This document shows positions 42,315 to 63,606 of a stretch of DNA of 64,000 nucleotides, one piece after another. Under the pieces are notes generated by a model that had not been told where the DNA came from, did not search any database, and was given only the letters and a program-made list of their open reading frames with translations. The stretch comes from an uncultured Candidatus Bathyarchaeia archaeon. Lineage in GTDB: Archaea > Thermoproteota > CALKCG01 > B24 > JAWCPE01. Numbering within the stretch: the first letter of the stretch is position 1; every line of letters begins with the position of its first letter. The stretch lies in contig CAYRUY010000003.1 in NCBI GenBank assembly GCA_964427455.1, positions 98 to 64,097 on the forward strand, in the 5' to 3' direction. Made by a program: the position numbers and the translations under genes.

Positions 42315-42360
42315 TTATATGACGGCCGTTATGTCTACTCACGCATAACGATGCGTTATG
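42315..42360 (+). promoter_or_regulatory. TATA-like element plus a triple CGTTATG/CATAACG inverted-repeat array overlapping the tupA start; candidate ModE-type operator
   Basis: GGCTTATATG at 42312-42321. CGTTATG at 42327-42333, CATAACG at 42344-42350 and CGTTATG at 42354-42360. Together these form the 8-nt palindrome GCATAACG-ATG-CGTTATGC. Confidence 0.45.
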
Positions 42361-43365
42361 CCTCGAATCGTCCTAGCTGCAGAGGCCCGTGTGAAAGCCA
42401 AGCCTGTTCTACTCGCGGCGATCGTCGTAGCTTCTATCAGCGTGGGCGGGGCTTACTATCTCCAAGCGACTGTTAAGGAGAGTATCATAGTCTCAACGAC
42501 GACAAGCCTCTACGAGACAGGGGTCTTGGACGTACTGAAGGAAAGGTTTGAGGCCCAGAACCGCGGCGTTAACGTCTCCTTCATCTCGCAGGGCACAGGT
42601 TTGGCGATCCAGACCGCTATGAGGGGAGATGCAGACCTGATACTTGTCCATGACCCCGCCAGAGAGCTCAAGTTTCTCCAAGACGGCTACGGCGTGAACA
42701 GGAAGGTGATCGCCTACAACTTCTTCATCATTGTAGGCCCGAGCGAAGACCCCGGGGGGATCAAAGGCCTGCCCCCTCTCGACGCCCTTCGGAAGATCGA
42801 TTCGTCAGCTCAGCGGGGAGGCGTCGTCTGGGTATCGAGAGGAGACGATTCAGGAACCCATACGAAAGAGAAGCAGCTGTGGAAAGCGGCGAGGCTCAAC
42901 CTCACCGACATCAGGACGGGAAGCTGGTACTTAGAGGCGGGCAGCGGCATGACTGCCACGTTGAAGCTTGCGAACGAGAAGCGCGGCTACACTCTCACGG
43001 ACATGGGCACGTACCTGATGAACCTCAAGAACGGGAACATCGACCTAGTCATGTTAGTCAGCGCAGGCAAGGAGCTGCTCAACGTGTACAGCGTCATAGC
43101 CTGCAATCCGCAAAACGTGAATCTGACGAAGGTCCGGTTCGACGGCGCTATGAGATTCATCACGTTCCTCGCCTCCGACGAAGGACAGACGGTCCTCGCG
43201 GAGTTCGGAAAAGAGCAATACGGTCAAACGCTCTTCTATCCATACGTTAAGGTATTGAAGGATGGAAGCGACCCGGAGAAGGTGGGATGGATACAGGAGC
43301 TTGCCTACTTTGATGGAACCGAGTGCCCGCCTGAGTATAGGTATAAGGCAGGCGATCTCTACTGA
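42358..43365 (+). CDS. tupA: Tungstate/molybdate ABC transporter substrate-binding protein (TupA/WtpA-like)
   Basis: An N-terminal TM/signal segment followed by 'IIVSTTTSLYETGVLDVLKERFEAQ', the TTTS motif typical of TupA. Confidence 0.65.
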   Translation: MPRIVLAAEARVKAKPVLLAAIVVASISVGGAYYLQATVKESIIVSTTTSLYETGVLDVLKERFEAQNRGVNVSFISQGTGLAIQTAMRGDADLILVHDPARELKFLQDGYGVNRKVIAYNFFIIVGPSEDPGGIKGLPPLDALRKIDSSAQRGGVVWVSRGDDSGTHTKEKQLWKAARLNLTDIRTGSWYLEAGSGMTATLKLANEKRGYTLTDMGTYLMNLKNGNIDLVMLVSAGKELLNVYSVIACNPQNVNLTKVRFDGAMRFITFLASDEGQTVLAEFGKEQYGQTLFYPYVKVLKDGSDPEKVGWIQELAYFDGTECPPEYRYKAGDLY

Positions 43366-43479
43366 CAGGAAGGCGGGTCGAAGGCAACGTTCTCACCAGT
43401 CCTTGAATCCCTCTGGGAGGCCCTGGTTGAAGCCTTCAACCTGATAGTCTCAGGGGACCCAGAGGTAGCCTCTGTCACG

Positions 43480-44088
43480 TTGAGGTCCCTGCAGGTTTCA
43501 GGCTTTGCGACGCTCTTAGCCTGCCTCTGGAGCCTACCTGCCGCGACGATTCTCGGCTTGACGAACTTCCGAGGCAAGAGGCTGGCTAGGGGCTTCTTCA
43601 GCGCGTTCATAGGTGTGCCGACCGTCGCCCTCGGCCTCGTGCTGTATATGCTCTTCTCGCGAAGCGGACCCCTAGGAGTCTTCGGCCTCCTCTACACGCC
43701 TCTCGCCATCAGCCTAGGCCAGGCAGTGCTCATAACCCCTATCATAGTGACCTTCGCAGCCTCGGCCCTGGAAAGCGTTGACCCGGAGCTTCGAGACTTG
43801 GCGAGAACGTTAGGCGCCTCTGAGATGCAGACTTCCCTGGCGATCATACGCGAGGCCTCTTTCAGCGTTCTCCTCTCCGTGGTCGCTGCCTTCAACCGAG
43901 CTATCGCGGAGCTGGGAATCGCCCTGATGCTGGGCGGAAACATACGCTACGTAACGCGGGTACTCACAACCTCCATTGCTCTCGAAACAGCGAGGGGCGA
44001 GATCGCCTTCAGCCTCGCACTAGCCATAGTACTCCTAGGCATCGTGTACAGCGTAAGCCTGGCTCTCAACCTACTGAGGAAGGCTTGA
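43480..44088 (+). CDS. tupB: Tungstate/molybdate ABC transporter permease (TupB-like). The true N-terminus probably lies upstream, near 43366.
   Basis: The ORF track starts at TTG 43480, but the same frame is open back to 43366 and encodes '..LESLWEALVEAFNLIVSGDPEVASVTL..', which looks like a permease N-terminus. Confidence 0.6.
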   Translation: MRSLQVSGFATLLACLWSLPAATILGLTNFRGKRLARGFFSAFIGVPTVALGLVLYMLFSRSGPLGVFGLLYTPLAISLGQAVLITPIIVTFAASALESVDPELRDLARTLGASEMQTSLAIIREASFSVLLSVVAAFNRAIAELGIALMLGGNIRYVTRVLTTSIALETARGEIAFSLALAIVLLGIVYSVSLALNLLRKA

Positions 44089-45140
44089 TGATGGCCTCGT
44101 TCCTTGAGACCCGAGAGCTCCAGATGCGCTACGGGCCTACCACCGCCCTGGCCGGCGCGAACCTGCAGATTGAGAAAGGGGAGACCTTGGCTCTGGTCGG
44201 CCCCAGTGGGTCAGGGAAGACGACCCTCCTTAGGATACTGGCGGGTCTGCAGTCGCCTACATCAGGCGAGGCCCTGGTCGAAGGGCGAAGGGAGGACGCA
44301 GCAGGGCTCAGACGGATCGCGTCTATGGTCTTCCAGAGAACCGTGATGTTCAACACGACCGTGTATGGGAACGTGTCGTTCGGGCTCCATACGAAGGGGC
44401 TCGCGAAGAGAGAGATAGAGGAGGAAGTCATGAGAGCACTGAGAAAGGTAGGGCTTCAAGGCTTTGAGAAGAGGAAGGCTCGGAAGCTCTCAGGCGGAGA
44501 GCAGCAGAGGGTCTCTCTAGCCCGAGCGCTCGCGGTTAGACCCGCCCTCCTGCTTCTCGACGAGCCTACCGCCAACCTAGACCCTGCGAATGCATCTGCC
44601 ATTGAACACGTTGTTTCCAACCTAGGGGAGGAGGCAAACACTGTCGTCTTGGCAACCCACAGAATGGACCAGGCTGAGAGACTTGCCGACAGGGTTGCGG
44701 TTCTCAACGAGGGACGCCTTGTCCAGGTTGGAGACGCGAAAGAACTCTTTCGAAGGCCGTCAGGTTTCCTCGCCAGCTTCGGCCAGCTCCGGAACGTTTT
44801 CCACGGCTCTGTCGCGTTATCCAAGGAAGGGTTAGCGGTCATTACGCTAGGAGGCGGAGTTCGGATCGAGGCGGCTTCCAACAGGACGGGAAAGGTTTCG
44901 GTCTTCGTGAGGCCTGAGGATATAATCGTCTCGAAGACCCCGATCGTGTCGAGCGCGAGGAACGTTCTCAGGGGGAGGATCGTCAAGGTCGAGGATCAAG
45001 ATGGCCTCGTCGCGTTAGCTGTTGATGTGGGCCAGGAACTAGCGGCGGTGGTCACAAAGCAGTCGTTCGTCGAGATGGGTTTGAACCTAGGGCTAGAGGT
45101 CTTCCTAGCCTTCAAGGCCTCTTCAGTAGAGGTCGTCTAG
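44085..45140 (+). CDS. ABC transporter ATP-binding protein with a C-terminal TOBE/MOP domain (ModC/TupC/WtpC-like)
   Basis: Walker A 'GPSGSGKTT', the signature 'LSGGEQQRVSLARAL', Walker B 'LLLLDEP', and a C-terminal ~120 aa beta-rich tail. Confidence 0.75.
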   Translation: MMMASFLETRELQMRYGPTTALAGANLQIEKGETLALVGPSGSGKTTLLRILAGLQSPTSGEALVEGRREDAAGLRRIASMVFQRTVMFNTTVYGNVSFGLHTKGLAKREIEEEVMRALRKVGLQGFEKRKARKLSGGEQQRVSLARALAVRPALLLLDEPTANLDPANASAIEHVVSNLGEEANTVVLATHRMDQAERLADRVAVLNEGRLVQVGDAKELFRRPSGFLASFGQLRNVFHGSVALSKEGLAVITLGGGVRIEAASNRTGKVSVFVRPEDIIVSKTPIVSSARNVLRGRIVKVEDQDGLVALAVDVGQELAAVVTKQSFVEMGLNLGLEVFLAFKASSVEVV

Positions 45141-51424: not shown

Positions 51425-52663
51425 TTAGGGCTCTAGTCCCCCGCTGGATTGAGCGATGGCTTCAGCTGTTTCCTCCCTGGGAGCCCTCGCCGCAAGTATC
51501 GTCCTCAGTCTCCCCGCCTCCGCCCCGAGAGCCTCAAGCGTATCCAGCAGTGGAGCAAGTGGCGGAGGGCATCCAGGGATGAAGGTGCCCTCAAGCCTGT
51601 TGTAGAAGGTCGGGGCGGCGCAGCTTCCACACAGCAGGACCTTCGTCGCCGCTTTAAGCGGTCTGGCTTCTGGCCCCATTTGGATACGAAGGCCCTCTTT
51701 CATGCCCTCATCATTTGTGCCATACACCAATAGCGCGATTCTTCCGTAGCAGCCAGTGCAGGATCCGCAGTCGACAAGATGGATGTGCTTGTTCCGGAGA
51801 TTGTCGAACTCCACCGCCGTAGTCGTGCTCCTCCTGTAGGCTTCGCTCAGAGGTAGGCCTATCGTCTCTATGCGGTCCTCCATCGCGGTGCCGAGGCCCT
51901 TCTCCTCGGCCCATGAGAGGTACCGAACGGTTCTGGGCTGAACGCCGATGGCCTTCGCCGAGGTCACGTCTACAGCGACGGGGTCGAGCCCCGCCAAGGT
52001 TAGGTCGAGGCGATGCGTCTCCGGGAATTCTTTCCTGGGGCCCCAGTGAAGAGTCGAGTAGGTCCCGTCAACGATGGTCAGGTCAGGCTTCCTGATGTTG
52101 TTCAGGTCTACGATCGCCTCTTCAACCCTGTCTAGCATGTGGTACCACACCTTATCCTTGCGCGGGATAGCACCATAGATGTTCTTGAGAGAAACAGTGA
52201 CGCCGAACGGATGAGTCTTCAACGTGGGGAGGCTGACGTAGACGTCGCAGTCGAGCACGGCCTTTGCGAGTCGGGCCTTCTTGAAGAACAGGGGGTTGGG
52301 CACATCGACCTCTGGAAACGGTTCGTCGTTGAAGTTGACCACCTTCGCTCCGAGCGGCTCGATCAACTCGCGGATTCGGTCGTAGAGCCGAGCTCGGCGC
52401 CCAGTGTAGACCTCGCCTTCGCCGACCAACACATCACTTGCACCGGCAGCGAAGCAGAGTTCGACAACCGTTCTGATCGCCCTTGGGTCCGCGGTCTCCC
52501 CGGTCTCAGCAGAGGCGCCATCAACAAGGTTGGGCTTCACGAGAACCTTGTCGCCCTTACGTACCACGTTCCCCATTCCGCCGATGAGCTTCACTGCCTG
52601 AACGATTCTCTCCTTCAGGTCTTCTGCCCTGACGATGGAAACTGTCGCAGCGCTCAAGGCCAT
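51425..52663 (-). CDS. DUF362-domain protein with a C-terminal Cys-rich (Fe-S-like) region
   Basis: The product has DUF362-like architecture. The C-terminus contains 'CGSCTGC' and 'CGSCAAP...GCPP'. Confidence 0.45.
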   Translation of the reverse strand: MALSAATVSIVRAEDLKERIVQAVKLIGGMGNVVRKGDKVLVKPNLVDGASAETGETADPRAIRTVVELCFAAGASDVLVGEGEVYTGRRARLYDRIRELIEPLGAKVVNFNDEPFPEVDVPNPLFFKKARLAKAVLDCDVYVSLPTLKTHPFGVTVSLKNIYGAIPRKDKVWYHMLDRVEEAIVDLNNIRKPDLTIVDGTYSTLHWGPRKEFPETHRLDLTLAGLDPVAVDVTSAKAIGVQPRTVRYLSWAEEKGLGTAMEDRIETIGLPLSEAYRRSTTTAVEFDNLRNKHIHLVDCGSCTGCYGRIALLVYGTNDEGMKEGLRIQMGPEARPLKAATKVLLCGSCAAPTFYNRLEGTFIPGCPPPLAPLLDTLEALGAEAGRLRTILAARAPREETAEAIAQSSGGLEP

Positions 52664-52799
52664 CGGCTGTGTCTCCCACATCCCCTCTTAATTAGAGTTG
52701 CGCGGAGTGTATTGTCTTCGGCGTGAAAGAACAACGACACAGCGATCTGAAGGCTTTTAAGCGTAAACAGGACGTCGATAACATCTCTGAGGGTTCTAC

Positions 52800-53891
52800 G
52801 TGACACCCCGTGAACGAATGCTGGCAGCTCTTCGTGGCGAACCGGCTGACAAGATCGTCTGGCAGCCTCGATTGCACCACTGGTATGAGGTGAACAGGAA
52901 GCGGGGAACACTGCCCCCAAGGTATCAAGGGTGGGATATCCTCGATATCTACGACGACTTGATGGCCACCCCGCGCTCATACCACTATTTCGGCGACGCG
53001 GTCAAATCGATCGAGAGCGACGATGTAGAGGTCTGGACAAGGAGGACTACGGATACACTCGCAGTTCGATACGTGACGCCCGTAGGTGAGCTACATGAGT
53101 GGAGTCGCATCACCGAGTGGGGGACCTCCAGCATGCACAGGGAGTACCCCGTGAAAGATGTCAAGGACTTCAAGGTGCTCACCTACATCCTGCAGAATCA
53201 ACGTTTCGAGTTTGACCCGAGCCTGTACGAGTACGCGCGGAAGAGGATCGGGGACAGAGCCCCGTCGATCGCGGGTATCCCACATGTTCCGGTCATGAGG
53301 CTCTTCATCTGGTATATGGGCTACGAGCGGGGCATCATCGCTCTATGGAAGCACCCAAAGGAGGTCCAAGAGCTGCTTCAAGTCATGGAGGAGAACGATG
53401 ACAAAAGGCTGGTAGCCCTGAAGGCGTCGCCCATCGAGGTCATCAACTTCGGCGACAATATCCATCACGACCTTTCGACGCCTCCCATCTTCAGGAAGTA
53501 CATCCTCCCCTACTATCAAAGAAGGACGCAGGAGCTCCATGACGCTGGGAAGCTCTGCACGTCTCACTGGGATGGCCGCGTCAAGAAACTGCTGCCCTTC
53601 ATGAAGGAGACAGGCTTGGACGCGATCGAGTGCCTGACCACCCAGCCGCAGGGAGATGTGACCTTTGAAGAACTGCGCGAAGCCATGAAGACAGTCACCC
53701 TGATGGACGGGATGCCCGCCACATACTTCCTGCCCGCCACAAGCGCCACGGAGGTCGCGGCATGTGCCAGGAAAGCCCTAGAACTCTTCAGCCCTCGCCT
53801 TGTGCTCGGCGTCGGCGACATGGTACCGCCAGACGGCGACGTAGAGAAGGTTCGACTCGTGTCGAAGATCGTTGATGACTTCAAGCCCTAG
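52800..53891 (+). CDS. Uroporphyrinogen decarboxylase (URO-D/MtaA-like) family protein
   Basis: 'MTPRERMLAALRGEPADKIVWQP' is a URO-D family N-terminus. It is 363 aa. Confidence 0.6.
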   Translation: MTPRERMLAALRGEPADKIVWQPRLHHWYEVNRKRGTLPPRYQGWDILDIYDDLMATPRSYHYFGDAVKSIESDDVEVWTRRTTDTLAVRYVTPVGELHEWSRITEWGTSSMHREYPVKDVKDFKVLTYILQNQRFEFDPSLYEYARKRIGDRAPSIAGIPHVPVMRLFIWYMGYERGIIALWKHPKEVQELLQVMEENDDKRLVALKASPIEVINFGDNIHHDLSTPPIFRKYILPYYQRRTQELHDAGKLCTSHWDGRVKKLLPFMKETGLDAIECLTTQPQGDVTFEELREAMKTVTLMDGMPATYFLPATSATEVAACARKALELFSPRLVLGVGDMVPPDGDVEKVRLVSKIVDDFKP

Positions 53892-54084
53892 CACTTATGC
53901 CTACGGGATTCCCTCGCTCACGCTCTTGAGAGAGCCCAGAGGAAACATCGGGCCTCCTGATCAGGAGCAGGCTCGGGTCTAGACGTCCACCTGCAGGTCG
54001 AGTAGTCTGTAGGTTCGGTAAATCGCTCTAGCCCTCATGCGTGACGGTTCTCAAAGCCTTGGCACCTAACCTGTGCCAGGCGGG

Positions 54085-54657
54085 CTACAGCCTTCTAACC
54101 CCGCATTGCGGGCAGTAGACTGCCTCAGTTGGTAGCTGGGCGCCGCAGTGCGGACATCGGCTTACGGCTGCGAAGGGAGGTGGAGGCACGGCGCGTTCAC
54201 GCCGTTCCCTTAAGGAGCCCCCAGCTATGCCTCCGAGTGCAGCGAAGAACAGAGCTGGCAAGAGCGTGGCAGCAACCAACTCTGCCAGTTCGAGAGTGGT
54301 GGGGTTCTTCGGTATGAGAGGCAGGTCGTAGATGCCAGACGTGATGATCGCCATGAGGCCCGTGACCGCTAAGGCGCCTCCCATCAGAGCGCCTGCGAGG
54401 GCTGCGGACGCTCCTCTTCTAGCCCCGGGGCCCGCCACGTAACCACCCGCGAGGCCTGCGAGGAACAACGCGGCAACACTTGCAATCGGGTTGATCCAGC
54501 CAAAGGCTAGGCTGAATATCAGGACGAGCAGGAAGGTGACGACTACACCTACGGCGAGGCTTCTGCCCCGTCGCTCTCTGAACAACCGTATAGGCGAAGG
54601 CATCTTCAGCCTCGACTCCGTTCGAGCGGTCGAGATATAAGAGTTGCTTGAGTGCAA
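54085..54657 (-). CDS. Membrane protein with a C-terminal zinc ribbon (architecture like the 41653..42189 product)
   Basis: TM helices followed by 'CPHCGAQLPTEAVYCPQCG'. Confidence 0.4.
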   Translation of the reverse strand: MHSSNSYISTARTESRLKMPSPIRLFRERRGRSLAVGVVVTFLLVLIFSLAFGWINPIASVAALFLAGLAGGYVAGPGARRGASAALAGALMGGALAVTGLMAIITSGIYDLPLIPKNPTTLELAELVAATLLPALFFAALGGIAGGSLRERRERAVPPPPFAAVSRCPHCGAQLPTEAVYCPQCGVRRL

Positions 54658-54748
54658 CCTAGCGAGTGACCCTTCCCCTACGCAAAGCTGAACTGCATGC
54701 TGTCGCCGATGAAGGACTCCTGTAGGACGTTATCGAAGGATACCGCTC

Positions 54749-54967
54749 CTACCCCAGCAGGTTCAGATTCTTAACCGTCTCTGTTATAAGTTGTGTTTGT
54801 CTCTCATCGAATCCCTTCTCTTTTAGCAACGAGCTCAACTTGTCCAAGTCATCGTTCTCATTAATTCCTTCGTCGACAAATCTGACAACCCGTCTTGCGT
54901 CGTGGTATCCGATAGAGCCCACAAGCTCCTTATAGAGTGCCCTCTTGCTCAAGGTTCCCAGCTTCAT
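54749..54967 (-). CDS. Small (72 aa) hypothetical protein, translationally coupled to the last gene of the hydrogenase operon
   Basis: A 4-nt ATGA overlap with the NuoB-like gene. It is acidic and helical, and I recognised no motif. Confidence 0.35.
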   Translation of the reverse strand: MKLGTLSKRALYKELVGSIGYHDARRVVRFVDEGINENDDLDKLSSLLKEKGFDERQTQLITETVKNLNLLG

Positions 54968-55428
54968 CCAGATCCCTCAACGTAGACTTCCTTGGCAATC
55001 TTTTGCTCCATCTTCCCTAAGCAGAGAAGGATGCCGTGTATTATTGCTTCGGGCTTCGGGGGACATCCTGGGACGCAAACGTCAACTGGAAGGACTCTAT
55101 CAACTCCACCCATTGTGGCAAAACTGTCATGCCATATTCCTCCTCCACAGGCGCACGAGCCAATCGCTATGACTATCTTCGGATTTGGGGCGGCTCCATA
55201 CACTGTGAGGAGAGGCTTGAGGGACTGCCTTGTCACAGGGCCTGTTACCAGAAAGACGTCAGCCTGCCTAGGGGAAGCAACGCGCCTGATCCCAAACCTT
55301 TCAACGTCGAAGTACGGTGTGAACACGTCGATGATCTCTATGTCACATCCATTACATCCACCAGTATTAACATGAAAAACCCAAACACTTTTCCCGATTT
55401 TCCTTACCTTCTCGTCAAGTTCATCCAT
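54964..55428 (-). CDS. hycG: Group-4 [NiFe]-hydrogenase small subunit (NuoB/HycG/EchC-like)
   Basis: 'GGCNGCDIE', 'GSCACGGG' and 'CVPGCPP' are the NuoB-type proximal [4Fe-4S] ligand motifs. It is 154 aa. Confidence 0.8.
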   Translation of the reverse strand: MDELDEKVRKIGKSVWVFHVNTGGCNGCDIEIIDVFTPYFDVERFGIRRVASPRQADVFLVTGPVTRQSLKPLLTVYGAAPNPKIVIAIGSCACGGGIWHDSFATMGGVDRVLPVDVCVPGCPPKPEAIIHGILLCLGKMEQKIAKEVYVEGSG

Positions 55429-55960
55429 ACTTCAGGCCTCCCTTATGCGTTTCAGCTAGTCTCTCACTCCACCTCTTCCTTCTGCATTCCAGACAAAGCA
55501 AGATCATCTTTCTGAGCTCCTCCTCATAATCAGTTAGTGCCTCATCGTATGCTGATAGAACGTCCTTCAAGCACTTTTCAGTAGCATGATATGCTCCACA
55601 GCTTTCACACTTGGCAAGCTTGTATTCAGCCACCGTGTCGAGGCGCACGGTGCCTAGTGAAGCGAGCTCGAAAACGTCAGTCAACGTTATAGCGCCTACT
55701 GGACAAGCCTCTTCACATCTGCCGCAAAATATGCATCTACCGTAGAACAACCTTATCGTCCTAACGTTATTGTTGTCCTCCATCGTTAATGCGTTCGGTG
55801 GACAAGTACTGACGCAGCCCCCACAACCTACGCAGGCTTCGAAGTCGATTTCAGGCTTCCCCCTTATGCCTTCAGGAACAGGCGTTTTCTCCTTTGGGTA
55901 TCTGAAGGTTACACGCCCTCGAGTTATCGCGACCTTAAGCAACCTTAAGAGACCGCTCAC
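55421..55960 (-). CDS. hycF: 2x[4Fe-4S] ferredoxin subunit (NuoI/HycF-like)
   Basis: 'CVGCGGCVSTCP' and 'CIFCGRCEEACP'. Confidence 0.75.
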   Translation of the reverse strand: MSGLLRLLKVAITRGRVTFRYPKEKTPVPEGIRGKPEIDFEACVGCGGCVSTCPPNALTMEDNNNVRTIRLFYGRCIFCGRCEEACPVGAITLTDVFELASLGTVRLDTVAEYKLAKCESCGAYHATEKCLKDVLSAYDEALTDYEEELRKMILLCLECRRKRWSERLAETHKGGLKYG

Positions 55961-57630
55961 TTTCCAGCCGCCTTGTTCAGAAGAGCTTCGCTCAAGACAG
56001 TCGCTTCCTTTCCGCTATTGGTATCGACTACCGTGAACCTTTCCATGCAGGAAATGCAGGGGTCAACGCTTCCTATAATTATCGGGGCATCGGCCAGCGT
56101 GTGTCCCCTTAACATGGTGTGGGCTACTTGGAGGTTCGCGTAGGTAGGCGCTCTAACACGCCACCTGTACACAGTGTTCTCTTTTCCGGTCATTAGGAAG
56201 TGAACGTTAGTTCCTCTTGGGGCCTCAGTAAGCCCTATGGAGATTTTCTCTGGAGGTATGTAGTCTATGTACGCATGGACAGGGCCGTTTGGCATGGAGT
56301 TCAAGGCTTGTTCTATGATGCTCAACGCCTCTAGCACCTCCTCTGCTCTCACAACCGTTCTAGCAAAGACGTCGCCTTCAGACATGACGGGGACCCTGAA
56401 ATTGAAATGTTCGTAAGCCTCGTAAGGATAGTCTTTTCTAGCGTCCATGGATATTCCGCAGCCCCGGGCTACGGGACCAACCACCGAATACTTCCTAGCA
56501 TCTTCCTTCGAAAGGTAACCTACACCTTTGAGTCTTCTGATGAAAGTTCCCAGGTTCAAAGCGGCTTCAAGCAATTCCTTGTATCCCTTAGTGACTTCCG
56601 AGATCAATCTAAGCGACTCCTTTCTCTTACGTTCGCTTACATCTCTTCTGACCCCGCCAAGAGCGATCATACCGTAAGTTTTTCTGTTGCCCGTTAGCAG
56701 TTCGGCTAGGAGCATGATCTTCTCTCTAACCCTCCAGAACTGCATAAACCCAGAGTCGAACCCAACCAAGTGAGACGCCACTCCGAGCCATAGAAGATGG
56801 CTATGTATCCTCTCGATCTCTAACAGAATGGTTCTGATCCACTTTGCTCTATCAGGGATGTTTGCTTCAGCCGCCTTTTCCAAGGCCTGAACGAAGCATT
56901 CGGAGTGAGTGAATCCGCATATGCCGCAGATCCTCTCCGCGATGAATGGTATCTTCCCATAGTTCAGCTTTGCTTCAGCGATCTTTTCCACTCCCCTGTA
57001 GTTGAAACCGCCTCTAAAGTCTGCATCTACTATCCTCTCGCCATCCACAAAGATTCTGAAGTGCATCGGCTCCTCCATCGCGAAGTGATAAGGCCCGTAG
57101 GGAATAATGCTGACCCTCTTCTCTGGAACCTTAAACGGATAGCCCTCCTTCTCCGTAGAAGGTGGACGCTGATCATATCGGTAATCTCTCCTCAGGGGGT
57201 AGCTTTGTTCTGGCCAATCGTCTGGAAGGAGAAGTTTCAGAGGGCGAGGGTGGCCGACAGGAGTTAACCCCAGAAAGTCTTTCACTTCCCTTTCATACCA
57301 GTCCGCGCACGGCACGTACGGCGTCGCGGATGGGAAGTCTTCATCACCTCTCGGTATCTTCGTCCTGAATACTGCAAGGATGCCTTTCTCACGCCATCCC
57401 AGGACATAGTCAAGCACAAAGCAGTTGGAAAGATCCCTGGTGTCTGTTCCAGCCATCGTCATAAAGTGCCCGCCAAGCTTGTTATATGCATGGTCTAAGA
57501 TGTCTGGTAAGTCTTTTTTCCTGACCTCGAACATATGGATGTTTCCTCGTACTCTCATGTATTCTATCGTTTTATCACCAAACTTCGCCCTCAGCTCTTC
57601 AATTGCGCGTGAGCCGCTCATCTTATCCAC
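55957..57630 (-). CDS. hycE: Group-4 [NiFe]-hydrogenase large subunit fused to an N-terminal NuoC-like domain (HycE-type NuoCD fusion)
   Basis: The N-terminal Ni-Fe motif 'RICGICGFTHS' (RxCGxCxxxH) and the C-terminal motif 'DPCISCMER' followed by a 26-aa processing tail. The 557-aa length matches HycE-like fusions. Confidence 0.85.
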   Translation of the reverse strand: MDKMSGSRAIEELRAKFGDKTIEYMRVRGNIHMFEVRKKDLPDILDHAYNKLGGHFMTMAGTDTRDLSNCFVLDYVLGWREKGILAVFRTKIPRGDEDFPSATPYVPCADWYEREVKDFLGLTPVGHPRPLKLLLPDDWPEQSYPLRRDYRYDQRPPSTEKEGYPFKVPEKRVSIIPYGPYHFAMEEPMHFRIFVDGERIVDADFRGGFNYRGVEKIAEAKLNYGKIPFIAERICGICGFTHSECFVQALEKAAEANIPDRAKWIRTILLEIERIHSHLLWLGVASHLVGFDSGFMQFWRVREKIMLLAELLTGNRKTYGMIALGGVRRDVSERKRKESLRLISEVTKGYKELLEAALNLGTFIRRLKGVGYLSKEDARKYSVVGPVARGCGISMDARKDYPYEAYEHFNFRVPVMSEGDVFARTVVRAEEVLEALSIIEQALNSMPNGPVHAYIDYIPPEKISIGLTEAPRGTNVHFLMTGKENTVYRWRVRAPTYANLQVAHTMLRGHTLADAPIIIGSVDPCISCMERFTVVDTNSGKEATVLSEALLNKAAGK

Positions 57631-58550
57631 CCCGCACTAGTCGCGAAAAGTGAGACAATCAACGTGGCTGACGAAATGACCAAAACATACCCGGCGAACT
57701 TTGCCGCCTCTAATAACCTAAACCTCGTACTTAGAGACTCAGCTAGCGATATAACAACAGTGCATAGCAGTACGCTCAGAGCGTACAGAAGGACGGAGGC
57801 AAGTGAGAACTCTCCCGGTGTAACCCTCAGCGGGATAAGCGCGCCGATGAAGAACTTTGCCATAGAGAAAAGAGCGAGGGCTCGCACAAGCTGGCCGAAT
57901 CTGATGAAAGCAAGAAGCTTTCCACTGAATTCCGTCAGAGGGCCTCCGGTTAATTCGGATTCCGCCTCGGGTATGTCGAACGGCACCCTCCCACTCTCGG
58001 CTATAAGGCAAAGGAAGTATGCTATCATGGCTGCAGCGAGCCAAACACTGAGATAGCGACCTTCCATGTTTTTTGTGATGTCGCCAAAGAACAGGGACCT
58101 CCCCAAAATGGCTAAGTTGGCTAGCGACACTATTATTGACGGTTCAATCAGGGTGGCAAGGATCACTTCTCTAGAGCCGCCCACGATCCCATAGGGATTT
58201 CCGCTTACGCTTCCGGCGATTGCCAGTAGAAAAGCTGACAGAACAGCCAAGTGAATGAACACTACGATCCCCCCTTCTGTCAGCGGGTCGATCGTTATCG
58301 TCGGTACTACCGCAAACATAGACAAAGACACAGTAAACGAGACTGCTGGAACCACTAATGCTAGGAAACTGCCTGTCTCGGGCACCACCGTTTCCTTTCG
58401 GAAGAGCTTCGACAGATCGTACCACGTTTGCAATACTGGTGGTCCCATCCTATTCTGCAACCTCGCCGTAAGCTTTCTCCTCACACCATCAAGTGTCGGC
58501 GCGACCGATATCGCCAGAAGCAGATTAAGAACCAAGATCGGCCAGTTCAC
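57618..58550 (-). CDS. hycD: Membrane subunit NuoH/HycD/EchB-like
   Basis: 'MNWPILVLNLLLAISVAPTLDGVRRKLTARLQNRMGPPVLQTWYDLSKLF' parallels the E. coli HycD N-terminus. Confidence 0.8.
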   Translation of the reverse strand: MNWPILVLNLLLAISVAPTLDGVRRKLTARLQNRMGPPVLQTWYDLSKLFRKETVVPETGSFLALVVPAVSFTVSLSMFAVVPTITIDPLTEGGIVVFIHLAVLSAFLLAIAGSVSGNPYGIVGGSREVILATLIEPSIIVSLANLAILGRSLFFGDITKNMEGRYLSVWLAAAMIAYFLCLIAESGRVPFDIPEAESELTGGPLTEFSGKLLAFIRFGQLVRALALFSMAKFFIGALIPLRVTPGEFSLASVLLYALSVLLCTVVISLAESLSTRFRLLEAAKFAGYVLVISSATLIVSLFATSAGWIR

Positions 58551-58557
58551 CGCAGCT

Positions 58558-59991
58558 TCACCTTACAAAGTACGCTGCGAATATGAGGATGACTAGGAGT
58601 ATTATGGGGTGAAGCTTCCCGACAACCCTAGAGAACGCTTGATCAGGCACTCTGATACCGTACAGGGGCTTGAAGATTTCCTTCCATAACGTGAATACCT
58701 CCCCCCTCTGTTTAGAAAGCTCCTCGGTGCTTGTATAGCCCGTAGACCAGAGCTCCGTCTTCACTACTTTGATGCATTTTGCCACGATGATTGATAGTAC
58801 GCCACCCACCGACATGATTACAAGCAACACATTCTCAACTCCTAGAGCTGGGGCACGCCCCACGATGTTCATCAGCGACAACAGGTTTGAGGAAAAGGCC
58901 GCAAGGACTGCCACCGAGAAGTTCGAAGCTAAAAGCACAGTCACCACCAACTCTTGAACTCTACTGGACGGTATATCGATCTTTGGTAAACCTTCATAAA
59001 CGAGTGTGTAGAAACGGAAGAATACAGCGAGCGATCCAGCGCTCACAAACAAGGCTACGCAACCCGCCAGAAGAAAACCTACGTCCACGTGCAATGCGGC
59101 GTACATCAGGGCCTCAGCCCCAACACTTAGCAACGCGAAAAGGATGATGTACGTCGTGAAAGTGTATGCACCCTCTAGTTTCAGCTTGCTCGACAGCCCG
59201 CCAAACTCTAGTATTCTATCCTTTCTCACGGCTCCACAAAGATAGCCATGGATCTGATAGAGTATAGAAAGACTTAGAGCGGACGGAAGCAAGAGATAGT
59301 TGAACAGCGGGGCTAGTTCGTTGGTGGAGGCGGAAAGCAATAGTAGGCCGAGGACAATCTGATGTAGAACAGAGTGGGCTTCAGGCATACTCTCGCAAAT
59401 AGCGCCGTTGAACACGCCGACGAGCATCATCGTGGCGCCAAACAACAAGAGGGCAGGAGCAAACCATGTGTAGGCCACCCGATACGTGTTCAAGTACATC
59501 AATGCCACAAAAGACGATAGGAGAGCCAAGGAGGGGAACCTCGAATACGACGCAGTAAGCCATACACCGGGGGGTGACAAACCTACAAGGAATAATGCTA
59601 GGATGAAACCTGGGAGAGGATGCTGTAGTTGAGTGAGCAAAGCTGTCATTGGAATAACCGCAAGAAGGTATGTCCCGAACCGACCATGCTCTTTCCCAAG
59701 AGATAAGGCGACAAAGATGAGTAAGGCTAGTAAGGCGAGTATGAGCGTCTGCGGGAGCGGCATAACCGATATCAACGTCCCCAACGAGAGGAGGGCAGAG
59801 TTATCCCCGGGATTTGCGAGCAGAATCAGCGAAAGCACTACTGCAAAGACTTGGTAAGGTTGAAAGCTCACTACTCCTGCCGTGTTCAGAAGGAGCAAAA
59901 ACAGACCTGTTACCGCGAGCAGTATCCTGGAAATCGTTCTATCACGTATGTAAGCCAAGGCTGGAAGAACAAGTAAAGCCTGCCAGAACAT
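58558..59991 (-). CDS. hycC: Antiporter-like membrane subunit (NuoL/M/N, HycC/EchA-like)
   Basis: A 477-aa protein with about 14 TM helices, sitting where hycC sits in the hyc gene order. Confidence 0.7.
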   Translation of the reverse strand: MFWQALLVLPALAYIRDRTISRILLAVTGLFLLLLNTAGVVSFQPYQVFAVVLSLILLANPGDNSALLSLGTLISVMPLPQTLILALLALLIFVALSLGKEHGRFGTYLLAVIPMTALLTQLQHPLPGFILALFLVGLSPPGVWLTASYSRFPSLALLSSFVALMYLNTYRVAYTWFAPALLLFGATMMLVGVFNGAICESMPEAHSVLHQIVLGLLLLSASTNELAPLFNYLLLPSALSLSILYQIHGYLCGAVRKDRILEFGGLSSKLKLEGAYTFTTYIILFALLSVGAEALMYAALHVDVGFLLAGCVALFVSAGSLAVFFRFYTLVYEGLPKIDIPSSRVQELVVTVLLASNFSVAVLAAFSSNLLSLMNIVGRAPALGVENVLLVIMSVGGVLSIIVAKCIKVVKTELWSTGYTSTEELSKQRGEVFTLWKEIFKPLYGIRVPDQAFSRVVGKLHPIILLVILIFAAYFVR

Positions 59992-59992
59992 G

Positions 59993-60538
59993 CTATCGCC
60001 CTTGAGTGTTAGACTCCTTGTCCTCCTCTGAAGAGAGAACTTTCATCTGACGAAGCAGCTCTATGGCCTTCCTCTTGGGCTTCCTTGTTACTTCCTCGTA
60101 TTCTCCGTAGAATACGACCCCGCTGGGGCACGTCTCTACGCACGCGGGGACAAGTCCTTGCCTTCTCCTTTCGGCGCACAGATCGCACTTCCTTATGATG
60201 CCCTTAACAGGATCTATATCGATCGCTCCAAACGGACAGGCTATAGCGCACAACTTGCATCCTATACATCGGTACTCCCTGACGAGCACCGCGCCATCTC
60301 CATCCTTGTACAATGCTCCTGTAGGGCAGACGCGCACACATACAGGATTTGTGCAATGCACGCAAGTCAGGGGGACGAGTATGCCGTCTGACGTGGAGTA
60401 TATGTTCACCCTAGCGTGAGAGTTCACGAACTCGCAAACTTTCTCACATACCTCGCAACCGATGCATCCTCCCACATCTACAAGCATCAATTTAGACACC
60501 AGGTTCACCTCACAACATCTTCTGAAGGTACCTGTCAA
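59993..60538 (-). CDS. hycB: Poly-[4Fe-4S] ferredoxin electron-transfer subunit (HycB-like)
   Basis: Four Cys clusters: 'CIGCEVCEKVCE', 'CVHCTNPVCVRVCP', 'CIGCKLCAIACP' and 'CDLCAERR..CVETCP'. Confidence 0.75.
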   Translation of the reverse strand: MTGTFRRCCEVNLVSKLMLVDVGGCIGCEVCEKVCEFVNSHARVNIYSTSDGILVPLTCVHCTNPVCVRVCPTGALYKDGDGAVLVREYRCIGCKLCAIACPFGAIDIDPVKGIIRKCDLCAERRRQGLVPACVETCPSGVVFYGEYEEVTRKPKRKAIELLRQMKVLSSEEDKESNTQGR

Positions 60539-61658
60539 CCCAGTATGCTGCCCTTAGGCCGGATTGAAAGGCCCTCCCCACTTTGCTGGTGCCCGCTGCG
60601 ACGTCGCCTGCAGCAAAGACCTTTTCTCTTGATGTCATAAACCTCTCATCGATCCCTATTCGTCCCCCTCTTGACAGTTTTATCCCCAAAACTTCGTTTC
60701 TGAACGGCGGGGTCGGCTTCTGACCTATTGCCACTATAATGTTATCAGCATCGACCGTCCTTTCCGTTCCAGGGATCTGCTCCAACCTTAAGATCACACC
60801 ATTTTTCACTTCAGCGTCGACGTCAATCAGCTCAATCGCCTCAACTTTTTCCTCGCCGATCACCCTCTTTATCACGGTCCTCTCTGTATGCTTACTTCCT
60901 AGTTCAATCAGCCGATTTATCTCGTAACCTCCTGCAGGGGCCTCAAGGAGTTTCTCTATTGAGATAAGGTGAACCTGACATCCATCCCGTATAGCGTCTA
61001 AAGCAGCGTCCGCGGCCACCAATCCAGCGCCGACAACGGCCACCTTGGAGCTGAGCTTGACCTTCTCGCATTCTGGCATAAGACCTAGCTCGCACGACCT
61101 GTTTCTAAACAGATATTCGAGAGCTGAATGTATTCCATCAACATTGGTGCCTTCTGCTGGAAGAGCGTTTGAGATCCATGTCCCTGTCGCTATTACTGTG
61201 GCATCAGATTCGTCTATCGCTCTCTGTAGCTCTAATGTCTCCTTAGCCAGCTTGTCTCCAAGAATTTCCTCTCCGCCAGCGGAAATCCTGCACGAGGTCT
61301 TCATTCTTACATCAAATATCTCCTCTAACTCCTTACACCCTAAGAACACCCTGTTTTTGGGTATTCTAGCCCCCGGGATGCCAAAGACCATCATCCCCCC
61401 TGGGAGCGGAAGCCTCTCGTATACGGTGATACCATAGCCTTTGCAGGCAAGATAGCCGGCAGCAGCTAATCCAGCAGGGCCAGCACCTATTATGGCAACC
61501 TTCGCATCCAACCTCTGAGCGGGCTTTTCCTTCTTGCACATGAATGTGAAACGCATGTATTCCCCGAAGCTCATCTCCACCCCCCTTTTCGTTCCAGAAG
61601 GGCTATGAACGAAGATGGCTTCAGCCTGAACTGATGGTAGAAGGTCGCAAACGCGCAA
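60510..61658 (-). CDS. GltD-like FAD/NAD(P)H-dependent oxidoreductase (glutamate synthase small-subunit family). It lacks the usual N-terminal Fe-S domain.
   Basis: 'KVAIIGAGPAGLAAAGYLACKGYGITVYERLPLPGGMMVFGIPGARIPK' and the C-terminal 'AAGDVAAGTSKVGRAFQSG'. Only about 45 aa precede the FAD motif. Confidence 0.65.
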   Translation of the reverse strand: MRVCDLLPSVQAEAIFVHSPSGTKRGVEMSFGEYMRFTFMCKKEKPAQRLDAKVAIIGAGPAGLAAAGYLACKGYGITVYERLPLPGGMMVFGIPGARIPKNRVFLGCKELEEIFDVRMKTSCRISAGGEEILGDKLAKETLELQRAIDESDATVIATGTWISNALPAEGTNVDGIHSALEYLFRNRSCELGLMPECEKVKLSSKVAVVGAGLVAADAALDAIRDGCQVHLISIEKLLEAPAGGYEINRLIELGSKHTERTVIKRVIGEEKVEAIELIDVDAEVKNGVILRLEQIPGTERTVDADNIIVAIGQKPTPPFRNEVLGIKLSRGGRIGIDERFMTSREKVFAAGDVAAGTSKVGRAFQSGLRAAYWVDRYLQKML

Positions 61659-62127
61659 CCACGGAAGACAGGCACCTCGAACCTTTGCACGGCTGCCACG
61701 ATCGCCTCCCTGGACAGGTAACCGGCAGAATCCTGCAAAGCCTGAGGCGCTCCGATAAGACTACTAGGGTTCTGTTCGAAGCCTCGCTTGGACATCAAGA
61801 GTTTTTTGTTTTGAACTTGCGCTTTTCCGTTCAGACATCTCTCATCAACATACTTCAGGTACAATACTTGACGCTTGAGTAGCCGCACCAGCTCATTCGA
61901 CGTGAGCAGCAATGGCAATGGTTGCAGCCCTCGCGAAGCTGTCAGTGACCCTCCTTGGTCACTCTTTAGGCTATCGGTACGGCGCATCAAGAGGGCGGAA
62001 AGATAGCTTGGCAGGCTGGCGTGGTTCGTCCGCGGTTAGCCATCACAGCCGATTGGCGATCCCCCTAGCTGGACGCTTGTCGCGCTTACTATATGAACCG
62101 CGAATTGACCAGAGAAGGGTTGTTGCG

Positions 62128-63606
62128 CTAGTCGCGTCCTTCAAGAAGCGCGTTTCTGGAGGCGATCTCCTTGTAGAGCCTCACCGCCTCGGTTGGTGTC
62201 CTCTCTTTGGTTTCAGGATTCACCCGGAAGAGGCCGAACCTCATCTTGAAGCCCTTAGCCCACTCGTAGTTGTCGACTAGAGACCAGTGGAAGTATCCCC
62301 TAAGCGGTACCCGGTCCTCGTCCACTGCGCTATGCAGCTCTTCCACATGTGCGATGAGGTATCGGCTTCTCTTCTCATCCTTCACGTCAGCTATGCCGTT
62401 CTCGGTTACCATGATGGGCCGCCTGTAGCCGTTGTAGGCCCAGTTGACCACGTAACGTATCCCAGGTGGGTATATCTCCCAGCCCATATCGGTGCAGTCG
62501 CCTTCACACGGCACCCCGCGGCCTTGGAGCATCCGATGAGTCGCGTCGGGGACCGCTTTGATCCTGTTCCGCATGTAGTAGTTGACGCCCAAGTAGTCGC
62601 ATCCCTTCACCAAGCCGGGGTGCTGCTCGTCGCTGCTCACGATCATGTCCAAGTCCATATCGTAGTCGCCTTTGATTGCCGCGTTCAGAAACCATTCATT
62701 CCACACGTATTCCAGGAACCTAGCTGCGGCCACATCGTCCTTCGACGCCGCGTCGTACGCCTCGTAGTACTGCGGGTTGTGGACGAGGCCCACGGTCGCA
62801 GGGCCGAGCTTGGAAACCGAGACGGTGTCCCATCGCTTGAGCATCTCATAGGCTACGCCGTGAGCGATAGCCAGGTTCTTCGAAGCCTTCATGAAGAGCT
62901 CGAAGTCTCCAAGGCCAGGAGGGAAGCCGCTGGATGCGTTCCAGTAACCGTTCCCGCTGACGACCATAGGCTCGTTGATCGTAGCATAGAGGTCGACGAG
63001 GTCGCCGAAAGCGTCCCCTACGAAGGCGGCGTACTTGGCGAACTCCACGATAGTCGAGGGCTCCAGCCAGCCACGTCTCTCAGCGTACTGCACCTTGTCT
63101 CTACAGGCAATGGGGTCATGCAACCAAAGAGGCAGAGGCCAATGATAGAGTGTCAAGAGAACCGTCATGCCCAGCCTCCTAGCCTCGGCTAGGATCTCCC
63201 GGTACCTCTCAACTGCGGTTCTCTCCGCGGTTTCATGAAGCATCTCCATACTATCTTTCGAGATATCTACGCGTGAGATGTTTCCCTCCTTATCGCGGAC
63301 GACTCGAGCTGGCACACTCATCGTTGGTTCTGGGAAGAGCCGGCTCCACTCAAGCCCAAGCCTCACAGCGTTGTTACCAAGCGCATCTCGAGCAAGCTTC
63401 AAGTCCATACGATAGAGTTCCCAGAAGCCCGGGCCGTTCTCGGGCAGGTCCCCGCTCACTAAGCCTCTTTCAACGTTGGTCGGGTCGTGAACCCACATGA
63501 ACCAGTCTGATCTGTTATCTACTGGGCCTCTGCCCATCTCTACTTGGAAAGCCGCTGTAGCTGTCCCCCAGAGAAAACCATCAGGGAAGCCCCTCCGTGC
63601 CTTCAA
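62128..63606 (-). CDS. Glycoside hydrolase family 1 (beta-glucosidase/beta-galactosidase)
   Basis: 'FPDGFLWGTATAAFQVEMG', 'TINEPMVV' (the acid/base NEP motif) and 'VTENGIAD' (the nucleophile ENG motif). Confidence 0.85.
   Translation of the reverse strand: MKARRGFPDGFLWGTATAAFQVEMGRGPVDNRSDWFMWVHDPTNVERGLVSGDLPENGPGFWELYRMDLKLARDALGNNAVRLGLEWSRLFPEPTMSVPARVVRDKEGNISRVDISKDSMEMLHETAERTAVERYREILAEARRLGMTVLLTLYHWPLPLWLHDPIACRDKVQYAERRGWLEPSTIVEFAKYAAFVGDAFGDLVDLYATINEPMVVSGNGYWNASSGFPPGLGDFELFMKASKNLAIAHGVAYEMLKRWDTVSVSKLGPATVGLVHNPQYYEAYDAASKDDVAAARFLEYVWNEWFLNAAIKGDYDMDLDMIVSSDEQHPGLVKGCDYLGVNYYMRNRIKAVPDATHRMLQGRGVPCEGDCTDMGWEIYPPGIRYVVNWAYNGYRRPIMVTENGIADVKDEKRSRYLIAHVEELHSAVDEDRVPLRGYFHWSLVDNYEWAKGFKMRFGLFRVNPETKERTPTEAVRLYKEIASRNALLEGRD

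Follow-up and report, generated by a model that had tools for sequence, protein, structure and literature searches.

A formate hydrogenlyase-like [NiFe] hydrogenase operon with a GltD-type flavoprotein in place of formate dehydrogenase in a Bathyarchaeota-like archaeon

Results and discussion

A 64-kb stretch of DNA from an uncultured Candidatus Bathyarchaeia archaeon (contig CAYRUY010000003.1) carries an operon for a group-4 [NiFe] hydrogenase with the architecture of formate hydrogenlyase (FHL), in which a short GltD/NfnL-type flavoprotein replaces formate dehydrogenase (FDH). We call the whole stretch the window and give all coordinates as positions within it; L-numbers are the contigs of relatives. 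The operon (54749-61574, minus strand) has eight close-packed genes, plus a relic open reading frame (ORF) upstream. Reading 5' to 3', it encodes a GltD-like flavoprotein, a HycB-like subunit, a 477-aa membrane protein, a HycD/NuoH-type subunit, a HycE-type large subunit, HycF, a short HycG and a 72-aa ORF. We think it probable, though some way from certain, that the product is anchored in the membrane and acts as a reversible NADH:proton oxidoreductase. The sequence itself shows what the genes are, that their cofactor-binding motifs are present and that synteny is conserved, and no FDH or Mrp genes lie nearby. A sequence-only reading of this DNA had already placed an FHL-order hydrogenase operon on the minus strand here, and we found all of the genes that it named.

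An intact [NiFe] hydrogenase core

The large subunit (55957-57621, minus strand; 554 aa from ATG 57621) is a HycE-type fusion of NuoC and NuoD, with Pfam matches to Complex1_30kDa, Complex1_49kDa and NiFeSe_Hases. Its best solved relative is E. coli HycE (7z0s_E, 8.5e-142), and the matches to P. furiosus MbhL (1.4e-76) and MbsL (2.3e-46) are far weaker. By BLAST it is 44% identical to E. coli HycE and 42% to HyfG. Both Ni-binding motifs reported earlier are present, RICGICGFTH (L1) at residue 233 and DPCISCMER (L2) at residue 523, and with them all four [NiFe] cysteines, so the earlier description of a true, HycE-type group-4 hydrogenase is confirmed. Like HycE, the protein has a C-terminal extension, here of 26 residues beyond the motif Arg. 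In HycE this extension is processed by HycI. Both the [NiFe] cysteines and the protease-type extension are lost in the MBS and complex I subunits.

These features matter for one alternative, that the operon encodes a sulfur- or polysulfide-reducing complex (MBX/MBS-like or "sulfide dehydrogenase"-like) whose flavoprotein or catalytic subunit reduces sulfur species and not protons. SudA was first described as a sulfide dehydrogenase, a Desulfurococcus homologue of the flavoprotein is annotated as NADPH-dependent polysulfide reductase, and Spring et al. 2010 left the choice between proton and sulfur reduction open (PMC3035292). However, the window's large subunit has kept the four cysteines and the extension, and MbsL scores far below HycE. 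We regard sulfur reduction as very improbable.

The subunits that would carry electrons to this site also have their cluster motifs. The HycB/HydN-type ferredoxin-like subunit (59993-60499, minus strand; 168 aa from GTG 60499) matches Fer4_11 (3.5e-24), is 30% identical to E. coli HycB and has 16 Cys in four [4Fe-4S] motifs. The HycF/NuoI-type subunit (55421-55960, minus strand) matches NCBIfam NF009053, "FHL complex iron-sulfur subunit" (4.6e-45), and is 34-39% identical to E. coli HycF and HyfH; its Cys pattern fits two [4Fe-4S] clusters, with an additional Cys group at the C-terminus. The HycG/NuoB-type small subunit (54964-55428, minus strand; 154 aa) consists of the core domain only. It matches Oxidored_q6 (1.1e-31) and is 51% identical to residues 31-167 of E. 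coli HycG, and its Cys pattern fits one cluster, the proximal [4Fe-4S]. Together with the NuoH-type and antiporter-like subunits described below, the NuoD-, NuoB- and NuoI-type subunits are the set that characterizes group-4 [NiFe] hydrogenases, and the HycE-type fusion and the HycB-C-D-E-F-G gene order are those of FHL.

The last gene of the operon, the 72-aa ORF (54749-54967, minus strand), was not described in the sequence-only reading. It follows HycG with a 4-nt ATGA overlap and is kept in that place in L003 (48% identity) and L006 (42%), while in L094 its counterpart is fused in frame to HycG. In a multiple alignment, HycG plus the 72-aa ORF is colinear with the longer HycG (230-255 aa) that E. 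coli, T. pendens and T. barophilus have, and the colinearity takes in the conserved "GY..aR" motif of the C-terminal extension. For this reason the ORF is the HycG C-terminal domain, split off as a polypeptide of its own. By BLAST we found no similarity between it and the 83-aa ORF that follows HycG in L009.

A flavoprotein predicted to use NADH

The first gene (60510-61574, minus strand) encodes a 354-aa flavoprotein of the GltD/SudA/NfnL type, with FAD and NAD(P)H domains. Profile searches uphold the GltD/SudA-family assignment: the protein matches Pyr_redox_2 (Pfam, 7e-33) and scores 371 bits against NCBIfam PRK12770, "putative glutamate synthase subunit beta", for which the curated cutoff is 343. 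The best match in the PDB is P. furiosus NfnI-L (5jca_L, 2.6e-45), of which only residues 147-472 are covered. The flavoprotein also aligns with the equivalent parts of T. maritima NfnB and GltD, that is, with the FAD and NAD(P)H domains only. Just ~23 residues come before the GxGxxG motif. This agrees with the earlier statement that the protein has lost its own Fe-S domain (2x[4Fe-4S], at the N-terminus), and the missing domain is the defining trait of the PRK12770 subfamily. The flavoprotein therefore shares homologous domains with NfnAB, SudAB and GltD, but it has neither their N-terminal two-cluster domain nor an NfnS/SudB partner.

It also differs from them in one short motif. We compared 120 flavoprotein homologues in an alignment in which the window's clade has 29 members, at an identity of at least 58%. 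At the end of beta2 of the second Rossmann fold, every clade member (29 of 29) has S-I/V-E, which in the window reads ISIEK. All 91 other PRK12770 homologues have Y-R-R at the same position, as does NfnI-L (YRRT). Two-dinucleotide-binding flavoproteins that use NADPH hold its 2'-phosphate with a pair of Arg, as in the HRR of thioredoxin reductase, and an acidic residue at the beta2 end favours NAD(H), as does the Glu of the NADH-using AhpF. Because S-I/V-E replaces the NADPH-type Y-R-R throughout the clade, the Rossmann-fold rule predicts that these flavoproteins use NADH. Of the link to NAD(P)H that had been proposed, the pyridine nucleotide part stands, and NADH is the more likely of the two nucleotides.

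The place of the flavoprotein in the operon can be compared with that of FdhF in T. pendens, where the order is FocA, FdhF, HycB and then a Hyf-type hydrogenase. Since FdhF-HycB there fills the slot that GltD-HycB fills in the window, the idea of a module swap, a flavoprotein for FDH, is sound.

Conservation and phylogeny of the operon

We found the same operon in at least seven diverged Bathyarchaeota-like lineages, and the named close relatives of the flavoprotein and of the large subunit carry the annotation "Candidatus Bathyarchaeota archaeon". In look-ups of genomic context and a scan of metagenomes, the eight genes kept their order while the GltD-like identity fell through 84, 75, 69, 65 and 63 to 60%, with different genes on either side. 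The arrangement is not a chance one, because the same order recurs on independent contigs at large-subunit identities of 57-84%. In every contig that reaches far enough upstream (L003-L008, L097/98, L100-102, L104, L107 and L109), the GltD-like gene is first.

There were no FDH, Mrp, canonical antiporter or hyp genes within 10 kb of the operons of ~15 relatives, and tblastn detected no homologues of fdhF, hycI, hycH or hypA-E in the 64-kb window. The FdhF-type subunit that serves for electron input in FHL is therefore absent from the window and from the 10 kb around the relatives' operons, in line with the earlier claim that the operon has no fdhF.

The large-subunit phylogeny was made with a crude method, a neighbor-joining (NJ) distance tree with 100 bootstraps. 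The window's clade is monophyletic in it (100/100). The clade lies outside a mixed 4a/4b assemblage that holds E. coli HycE/HyfG, T. pendens and the FHL and 4b enzymes of Thermococcales, so the window's large subunit is not inside the enterobacterial Hyc/Hyf clade.

The most basal member of the clade, L180 (ENA ERZ1742239 NODE_23929, GC 0.37), has a shorter operon. At L180:200-4295 we found GltD-like, HycB, HycE, HycF and HycG genes, with the NiFe cysteines intact and a GltD-like protein that is 60% identical to the window's and has the SIE motif. There are no HycC or HycD genes in the L180 operon, and the next gene is on the opposite strand. The same large subunit is also on four other contigs of ~4-5 kb. 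Judged by its gene content, the L180 hydrogenase is apparently soluble and derived from a membrane-bound group-4 lineage. Since L180 has these five genes only, GltD-HycB-HycE-HycF-HycG make up the conserved redox unit, and what is conserved as a functional unit is the chain from the flavoprotein to [NiFe].

A reduced membrane arm

The window's operon does have membrane genes, one of which is easy to recognize and one of which is not. The HycD/NuoH-type membrane anchor (57618-58550, minus strand; 310 aa) matches NADHdh (4.6e-51) and is 32% identical to E. coli HycD. Its E-channel is intact: it retains E130, E138, E189, E199, E201 and E203 in E. coli HycD numbering. The importance of these glutamates in HycD has been described (PMC9474812).

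The 477-aa protein (58558-59991, minus strand) has no match in Pfam or NCBIfam, and no BLAST similarity to E. coli HycC, HyfB/D/F or the canonical HycC-like protein of L009. A word-indexed homologue search found five relatives. An exhaustive HMMER profile search of 1.84 billion representatives gave only 10, none of them a canonical antiporter subunit. The protein is restricted to this lineage. It is 41% identical to its L003 orthologue, while the large subunit and the flavoprotein are 60-65% identical to theirs, which means that it evolves faster than its neighbours. An AF2 run with a 5-sequence alignment gave a pLDDT of 41, and 13 sequences were needed for a usable model. When the family was compared profile to profile with an alignment of HycC, HyfBDF and Mrp-type proteins, the match had a probability of 96.6% (E 6.4e-10, 229 columns). 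This and the fold searches show that the 477-aa protein is a very diverged subunit of the HycC/NuoL type. The sequence-only reading had called it NuoL-like, and it was right about antiporter-family membership, but the protein cannot be recognized as such by Pfam, NCBIfam or BLAST.

In the hhalign register, the family-invariant E293 of the 477-aa protein aligns with HycC Glu391. Glu391 lies in TM12 at the interface with HycD, and H2 production falls when it is mutated (PMC9474812). For the TM11 His/Lys motif that canonical antiporter subunits have, no alignment with the 477-aa protein could be made. From the equivalent of Glu391 and the retained E-channel glutamates of HycD, the membrane arm is a real but strongly reduced HycC-HycD pair.

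Ion translocation by the complex, as had been suggested, is doubtful, since the operon lacks an Mrp module, the antiporter-like subunit has diverged to an extreme degree and the basal relative L180 has no membrane genes. If the window's complex pumps ions at all, it probably does so weakly. With Mrp lost, the antiporter subunit decayed and one member free of membrane genes, vigorous ion pumping is not likely to be the point of this clade.

Comparison with known systems

This arrangement has been published before. In the Desulfurococcaceae T. aggregans (Tagg_0050-0059), D. kamchatkensis and S. marinus, Spring et al. 2010 reported "dehydrogenase-linked" operons of an FHL-like type in which short SudA-like genes stand in place of fdhA, and the idea that we put forward here was proposed for those operons too (PMC3035292). 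Before that, Anderson et al. 2009 had noted Smar_1055, a SudA homologue shorter by 120 aa, beside Smar_1057-1071 (PMC2678158). Given the 2010 description, the novelty implied by the sequence-only reading was too high. This kind of operon has been recognized since 2009-2010, and the window holds a streamlined, separately branching variant of it.

We also recovered the Desulfurococcaceae-type operon in Desulfurococcales archaeon ex4484_42 (L009) and in L014. The order there is Mrp genes, GltD-like, HycB, a canonical Proton_antipo_M subunit, HycD, HycE, HycF, a short HycG and a small ORF, which in L009 is the 83-aa one. As in the window, a short GltD/SudA-like gene and a HycB-like gene sit in the fdhA slot ahead of HycC-D-E-F-G-type genes, and a small ORF follows a short HycG. 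The differences are that the window has no Mrp genes and a barely recognizable antiporter subunit, that the flavoproteins are only 42-45% identical to the window's and have YRR in place of SIE, and that the hosts are hyperthermophilic crenarchaeotes and not Bathyarchaeota-like. The L009, L014 and P0235 large subunits form their own clade in 100 of 100 NJ bootstraps and are sister to the window's clade in 0 of 100, so common descent of the hydrogenase core with the Desulfurococcaceae operons is not seen in this tree.

E. coli FHL-1 (HycBCDEFG plus FdhF; 7z0s/7z0t) has the same gene order, the same NuoC-NuoD fusion and the same minimal two-subunit membrane arm, and its E-channel glutamates and the equivalent of HycC E391 are retained in the window. 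In contrast, the window's operon encodes a flavoprotein and no FdhF, its HycC is cut to 477 aa and highly diverged, its HycG is split in two, and we did not find hycA, hycH or hycI in the window. The group 4a/4b enzymes of Thermococcales and T. pendens (fdh-mfh-mnh and Hyf-type), which respire formate or CO, have large subunits 47-53% identical to the window's and likewise place a HycB-type connector after the substrate module. They carry Fdh or carbon monoxide dehydrogenase (CODH), several antiporter-like subunits and Mrp, whereas the window has none of these. Group 4b has Mrp MnhB-G in the cluster; Mrp genes are present in L009, L014 and L099 and absent from the window and from its clade relatives.

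We considered and rejected two candidates. Contig L010 of T. barophilus had looked like another case of GltD replacing FDH, but extending it upstream (L099) showed an Fdh-like gene and a first HycB. A polyphyly argument that rested on T. barophilus was dropped with it. The second was identity with the "Hfo" hydrogenase that Loh et al. 2021 described from termite-gut Bathyarchaeia, which is an Fpo-like, 11-subunit 4g enzyme (PMC7886697).

The full T. barophilus CH5 cluster (L099:3593-20144, CP013050.1) has Fdh-like, HycB, group-4b hydrogenase and Mrp genes, and continues directly with a 119-aa ORF, a GltD-like gene, a second HycB-like gene and an Fe-alcohol dehydrogenase. No Molybdop_Fe4S4 match is on record for its Fdh-like protein.

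A further alternative is that the window's enzyme is still a formate hydrogenlyase, with an FdhF from elsewhere docking on HycB and the GltD-like protein serving as an extra or alternative entry, for example linking formate or H2 to pyridine nucleotides. T. barophilus joins both kinds of module in one cluster, fdhF of E. coli lies 1.45 Mb from hyc, and the window has a molybdate/tungstate (Mo/W) ABC transporter. Against this, FDH is missing from the 10 kb around the relatives' operons, the GltD-like gene is always in the first, FdhF-equivalent slot with a single HycB, and L180 makes do with GltD, HycB and HycEFG alone. Both a distant FdhF and the sulfur-reducing complex are made less likely by an intact NiFe site and by synteny in which GltD strictly comes first. 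We judge that there is only a small chance of an FdhF partner.

Outside this group, GltD-like genes are found with FDH in bacteria. A scan of genome contigs with the GltD-like alignment gave, among the matches listed, mostly generic bacterial homologues linked to GltD or FdhF, with L014 and L015 the informative ones. In the bacterial contigs L015, L022, L031, L045 and L071, also among the matches listed, GltD-like genes adjoin FdhF homologues that are 41-45% identical to E. coli FdhF. It follows that GltD-type modules and FDH are frequent partners elsewhere.

Proposed mechanism

From the genes and motifs above we infer how the subunits would assemble, how electrons would flow and in which direction, the preference for NADH, and the energy coupling. 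The FAD of the flavoprotein would be the entry or exit site for NADH, and would be reduced by it. Single electrons would then pass through the four [4Fe-4S] clusters of the HycB-like subunit, which would act as the wire from the flavin to HycF, and on through the HycF clusters and the HycG proximal cluster to the [NiFe] site, where protons would be reduced to H2. The reaction is probably reversible, so that at high H2 the enzyme would reduce NAD+ with H2. HycD and the degenerate HycC-like subunit would anchor the complex and likely supply a path for substrate protons through the E-channel.

Several points weigh against this scheme. The standard potentials are -320 mV for NAD(P)H and -414 mV for H2, so making H2 from NAD(P)H is endergonic under standard conditions and needs a low H2 partial pressure or a membrane potential. 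The contact between FAD and HycB is assumed, because the flavoprotein has no Fe-S cluster of its own. The lack of a linked fdhF is weak evidence when taken alone, since the E. coli gene is also unlinked and our view is limited to 64 kb. As T. barophilus has the GltD-like/HycB-like pair in addition to Fdh, the pair is not always a replacement. The hyp and hycI genes were not found in the window, and in the literature we found no biochemical characterization of any GltD/SudA-linked group-4 hydrogenase.

The thermodynamic problem would go away if the enzyme were ferredoxin-dependent or confurcating. In that case HycB would take electrons from reduced ferredoxin, and the GltD-like flavin would couple the oxidation of NADH and ferredoxin to H2 production, or the flavoprotein would serve the hydrogenase as an attached NADH:ferredoxin oxidoreductase. 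Among solved structures, the flavoprotein is closest to the large subunits of NfnI and NfnII, whose FAD bifurcates, and HydDB, which defines no NAD(P)H-linked class in group 4, treats uncharacterized group-4 enzymes as ferredoxin-coupled. However, there is no second subunit of the NfnS/SudB type and no second electron path from the flavin, the operon has no ferredoxin gene, and the Fe-S clusters form one linear chain in an FHL-like architecture. This single-path architecture disfavours confurcation, and we consider it unlikely.

We therefore prefer the NADH:proton oxidoreductase. NADH-driven H2 production should become possible where H2 stays at a very low partial pressure, as in methanogenic or sulfate-reducing sediments. 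Alternatively, a membrane potential could drive the reaction, or the enzyme could run as an H2:NAD+ oxidoreductase.

Gene starts and surroundings of the operon

In the ORF listing of 50-64 kb, the minus-strand ORFs form an unbroken series from 61990 to 54749. Shine-Dalgarno (SD) sequences precede all internal genes of the operon, and we computed the junctions from the starts that they support. The relic ORF overlaps the flavoprotein gene by 4 nt (ATGA). A 10-nt gap separates GltD from HycB, a 1-nt gap HycB from the 477-aa protein and a 7-nt gap the 477-aa protein from HycD. HycD overlaps HycE by 4 nt, HycE overlaps HycF by 4 nt, HycF overlaps HycG by 8 nt, and HycG overlaps the 72-aa ORF by 4 nt. 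The sequence-only reading had counted seven genes with overlaps of 1-29 nt. The operon-like packing is real, but there are eight ORFs, and the coordinate 54749 belongs to the 72-aa ORF. Overlaps of 29 nt and 13 nt were artefacts of choosing the longest ORF, and the SD-supported starts give a range from a 10-nt gap to an 8-nt overlap.

The flavoprotein had been started at TTG 61658. We replace this with ATG 61574, which is preceded by the SD GGGGGGTGGAG and gives 354 aa. The 354-aa product is present verbatim in public assemblies, as is the large subunit, and ATG 61574 is almost certainly the true start. For the HycB-like gene, the SD GAGGTGA lies upstream, and gene callers also choose the 168-aa start.

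The upstream ORF (61571-61990, minus strand) is a partial NuoE/HoxE-type gene. It matches PF01257, the model of the NuoE/HoxE [2Fe-2S] thioredoxin-like proteins, with 26.7 bits over profile positions 8-63 of 145, which is the N-terminal helical part only, without the cluster-binding domain. It lies in the 550-bp spacer between the flavoprotein gene and the next full gene upstream, a GH1 beta-glucosidase on the same strand (62128-63606). In the closest relatives, L097 and L098, only the last 24 codons are similar and stops break the frame; the ORF is absent from L003 and L006. It is probably a decaying relic of an ancestral NuoE-type gene, and in our reading its 3' end has been kept because the flavoprotein gene has its ribosome-binding site there.

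Downstream of the operon is a DUF5518/zinc-ribbon membrane protein. The eight genes have a GC of 0.47-0.52 and a GC3 of 0.50-0.60, and in the flanking genes these are 0.57-0.61 and 0.65-0.77. With both values below those of its neighbours, the operon stands out as an island of different composition, and it may have been acquired laterally. Rfam gave no match in 54000-62300, and the larger ORFs at 21-54 kb have unrelated functions by Pfam scans.

Two other features of the window deserve mention. At 42358-45140 (plus strand) there is a molybdate/tungstate-type ABC transporter made up of a ModA/WtpA-like binding protein, a permease and an ATPase with a TOBE domain, so the organism can be expected to have Mo/W enzymes. 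A DUF362 protein with a C-terminal Cys-rich extension (51425-52681, minus strand) and, beside it, a divergently transcribed URO-D/MtaA-like protein (52800-53891, plus strand) lie just downstream of the operon.

Biological significance

It is possible, though we would not bet on it, that in the Bathyarchaeota-like clade a membrane arm of the complex I type was taken apart step by step around an [NiFe] core fed by NADH. The steps would go from Mrp and a canonical antiporter in Desulfurococcales to the degenerate HycC with HycD in the window, and to no membrane subunits in L180. If this is true, the series would end in a soluble NADH hydrogenase of five subunits, derived from group 4, and the enzyme encoded in the window would amount to a minimal "complex I with protons as acceptor" with a GltD-type NADH module that arose independently of NuoEFG. 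The NuoE-like relic upstream may be a trace of an earlier partner of the NuoE type.

An NADH-fed group-4 hydrogenase would be a natural analogue of complex I with an NADH module from another protein family. The series of Mrp-linked, minimal-arm and apparently soluble forms would make a comparative system for what the membrane arm contributes, and the switch between S-I/V-E and Y-R-R is a simple prediction of cofactor specificity that is open to testing. Proof of either the NADH specificity or the soluble derivative of group 4 would add to the interest of the system.

In anoxic sediments, Bathyarchaeia rank with the most abundant archaea. A conserved NADH-linked hydrogenase of the FHL type would, if our interpretation is right, give them a direct route to vent reducing power as H2 or to take it up, and it would bear on how they balance NADH and H2, on their syntrophy and on the acetogenesis that has been proposed for them.

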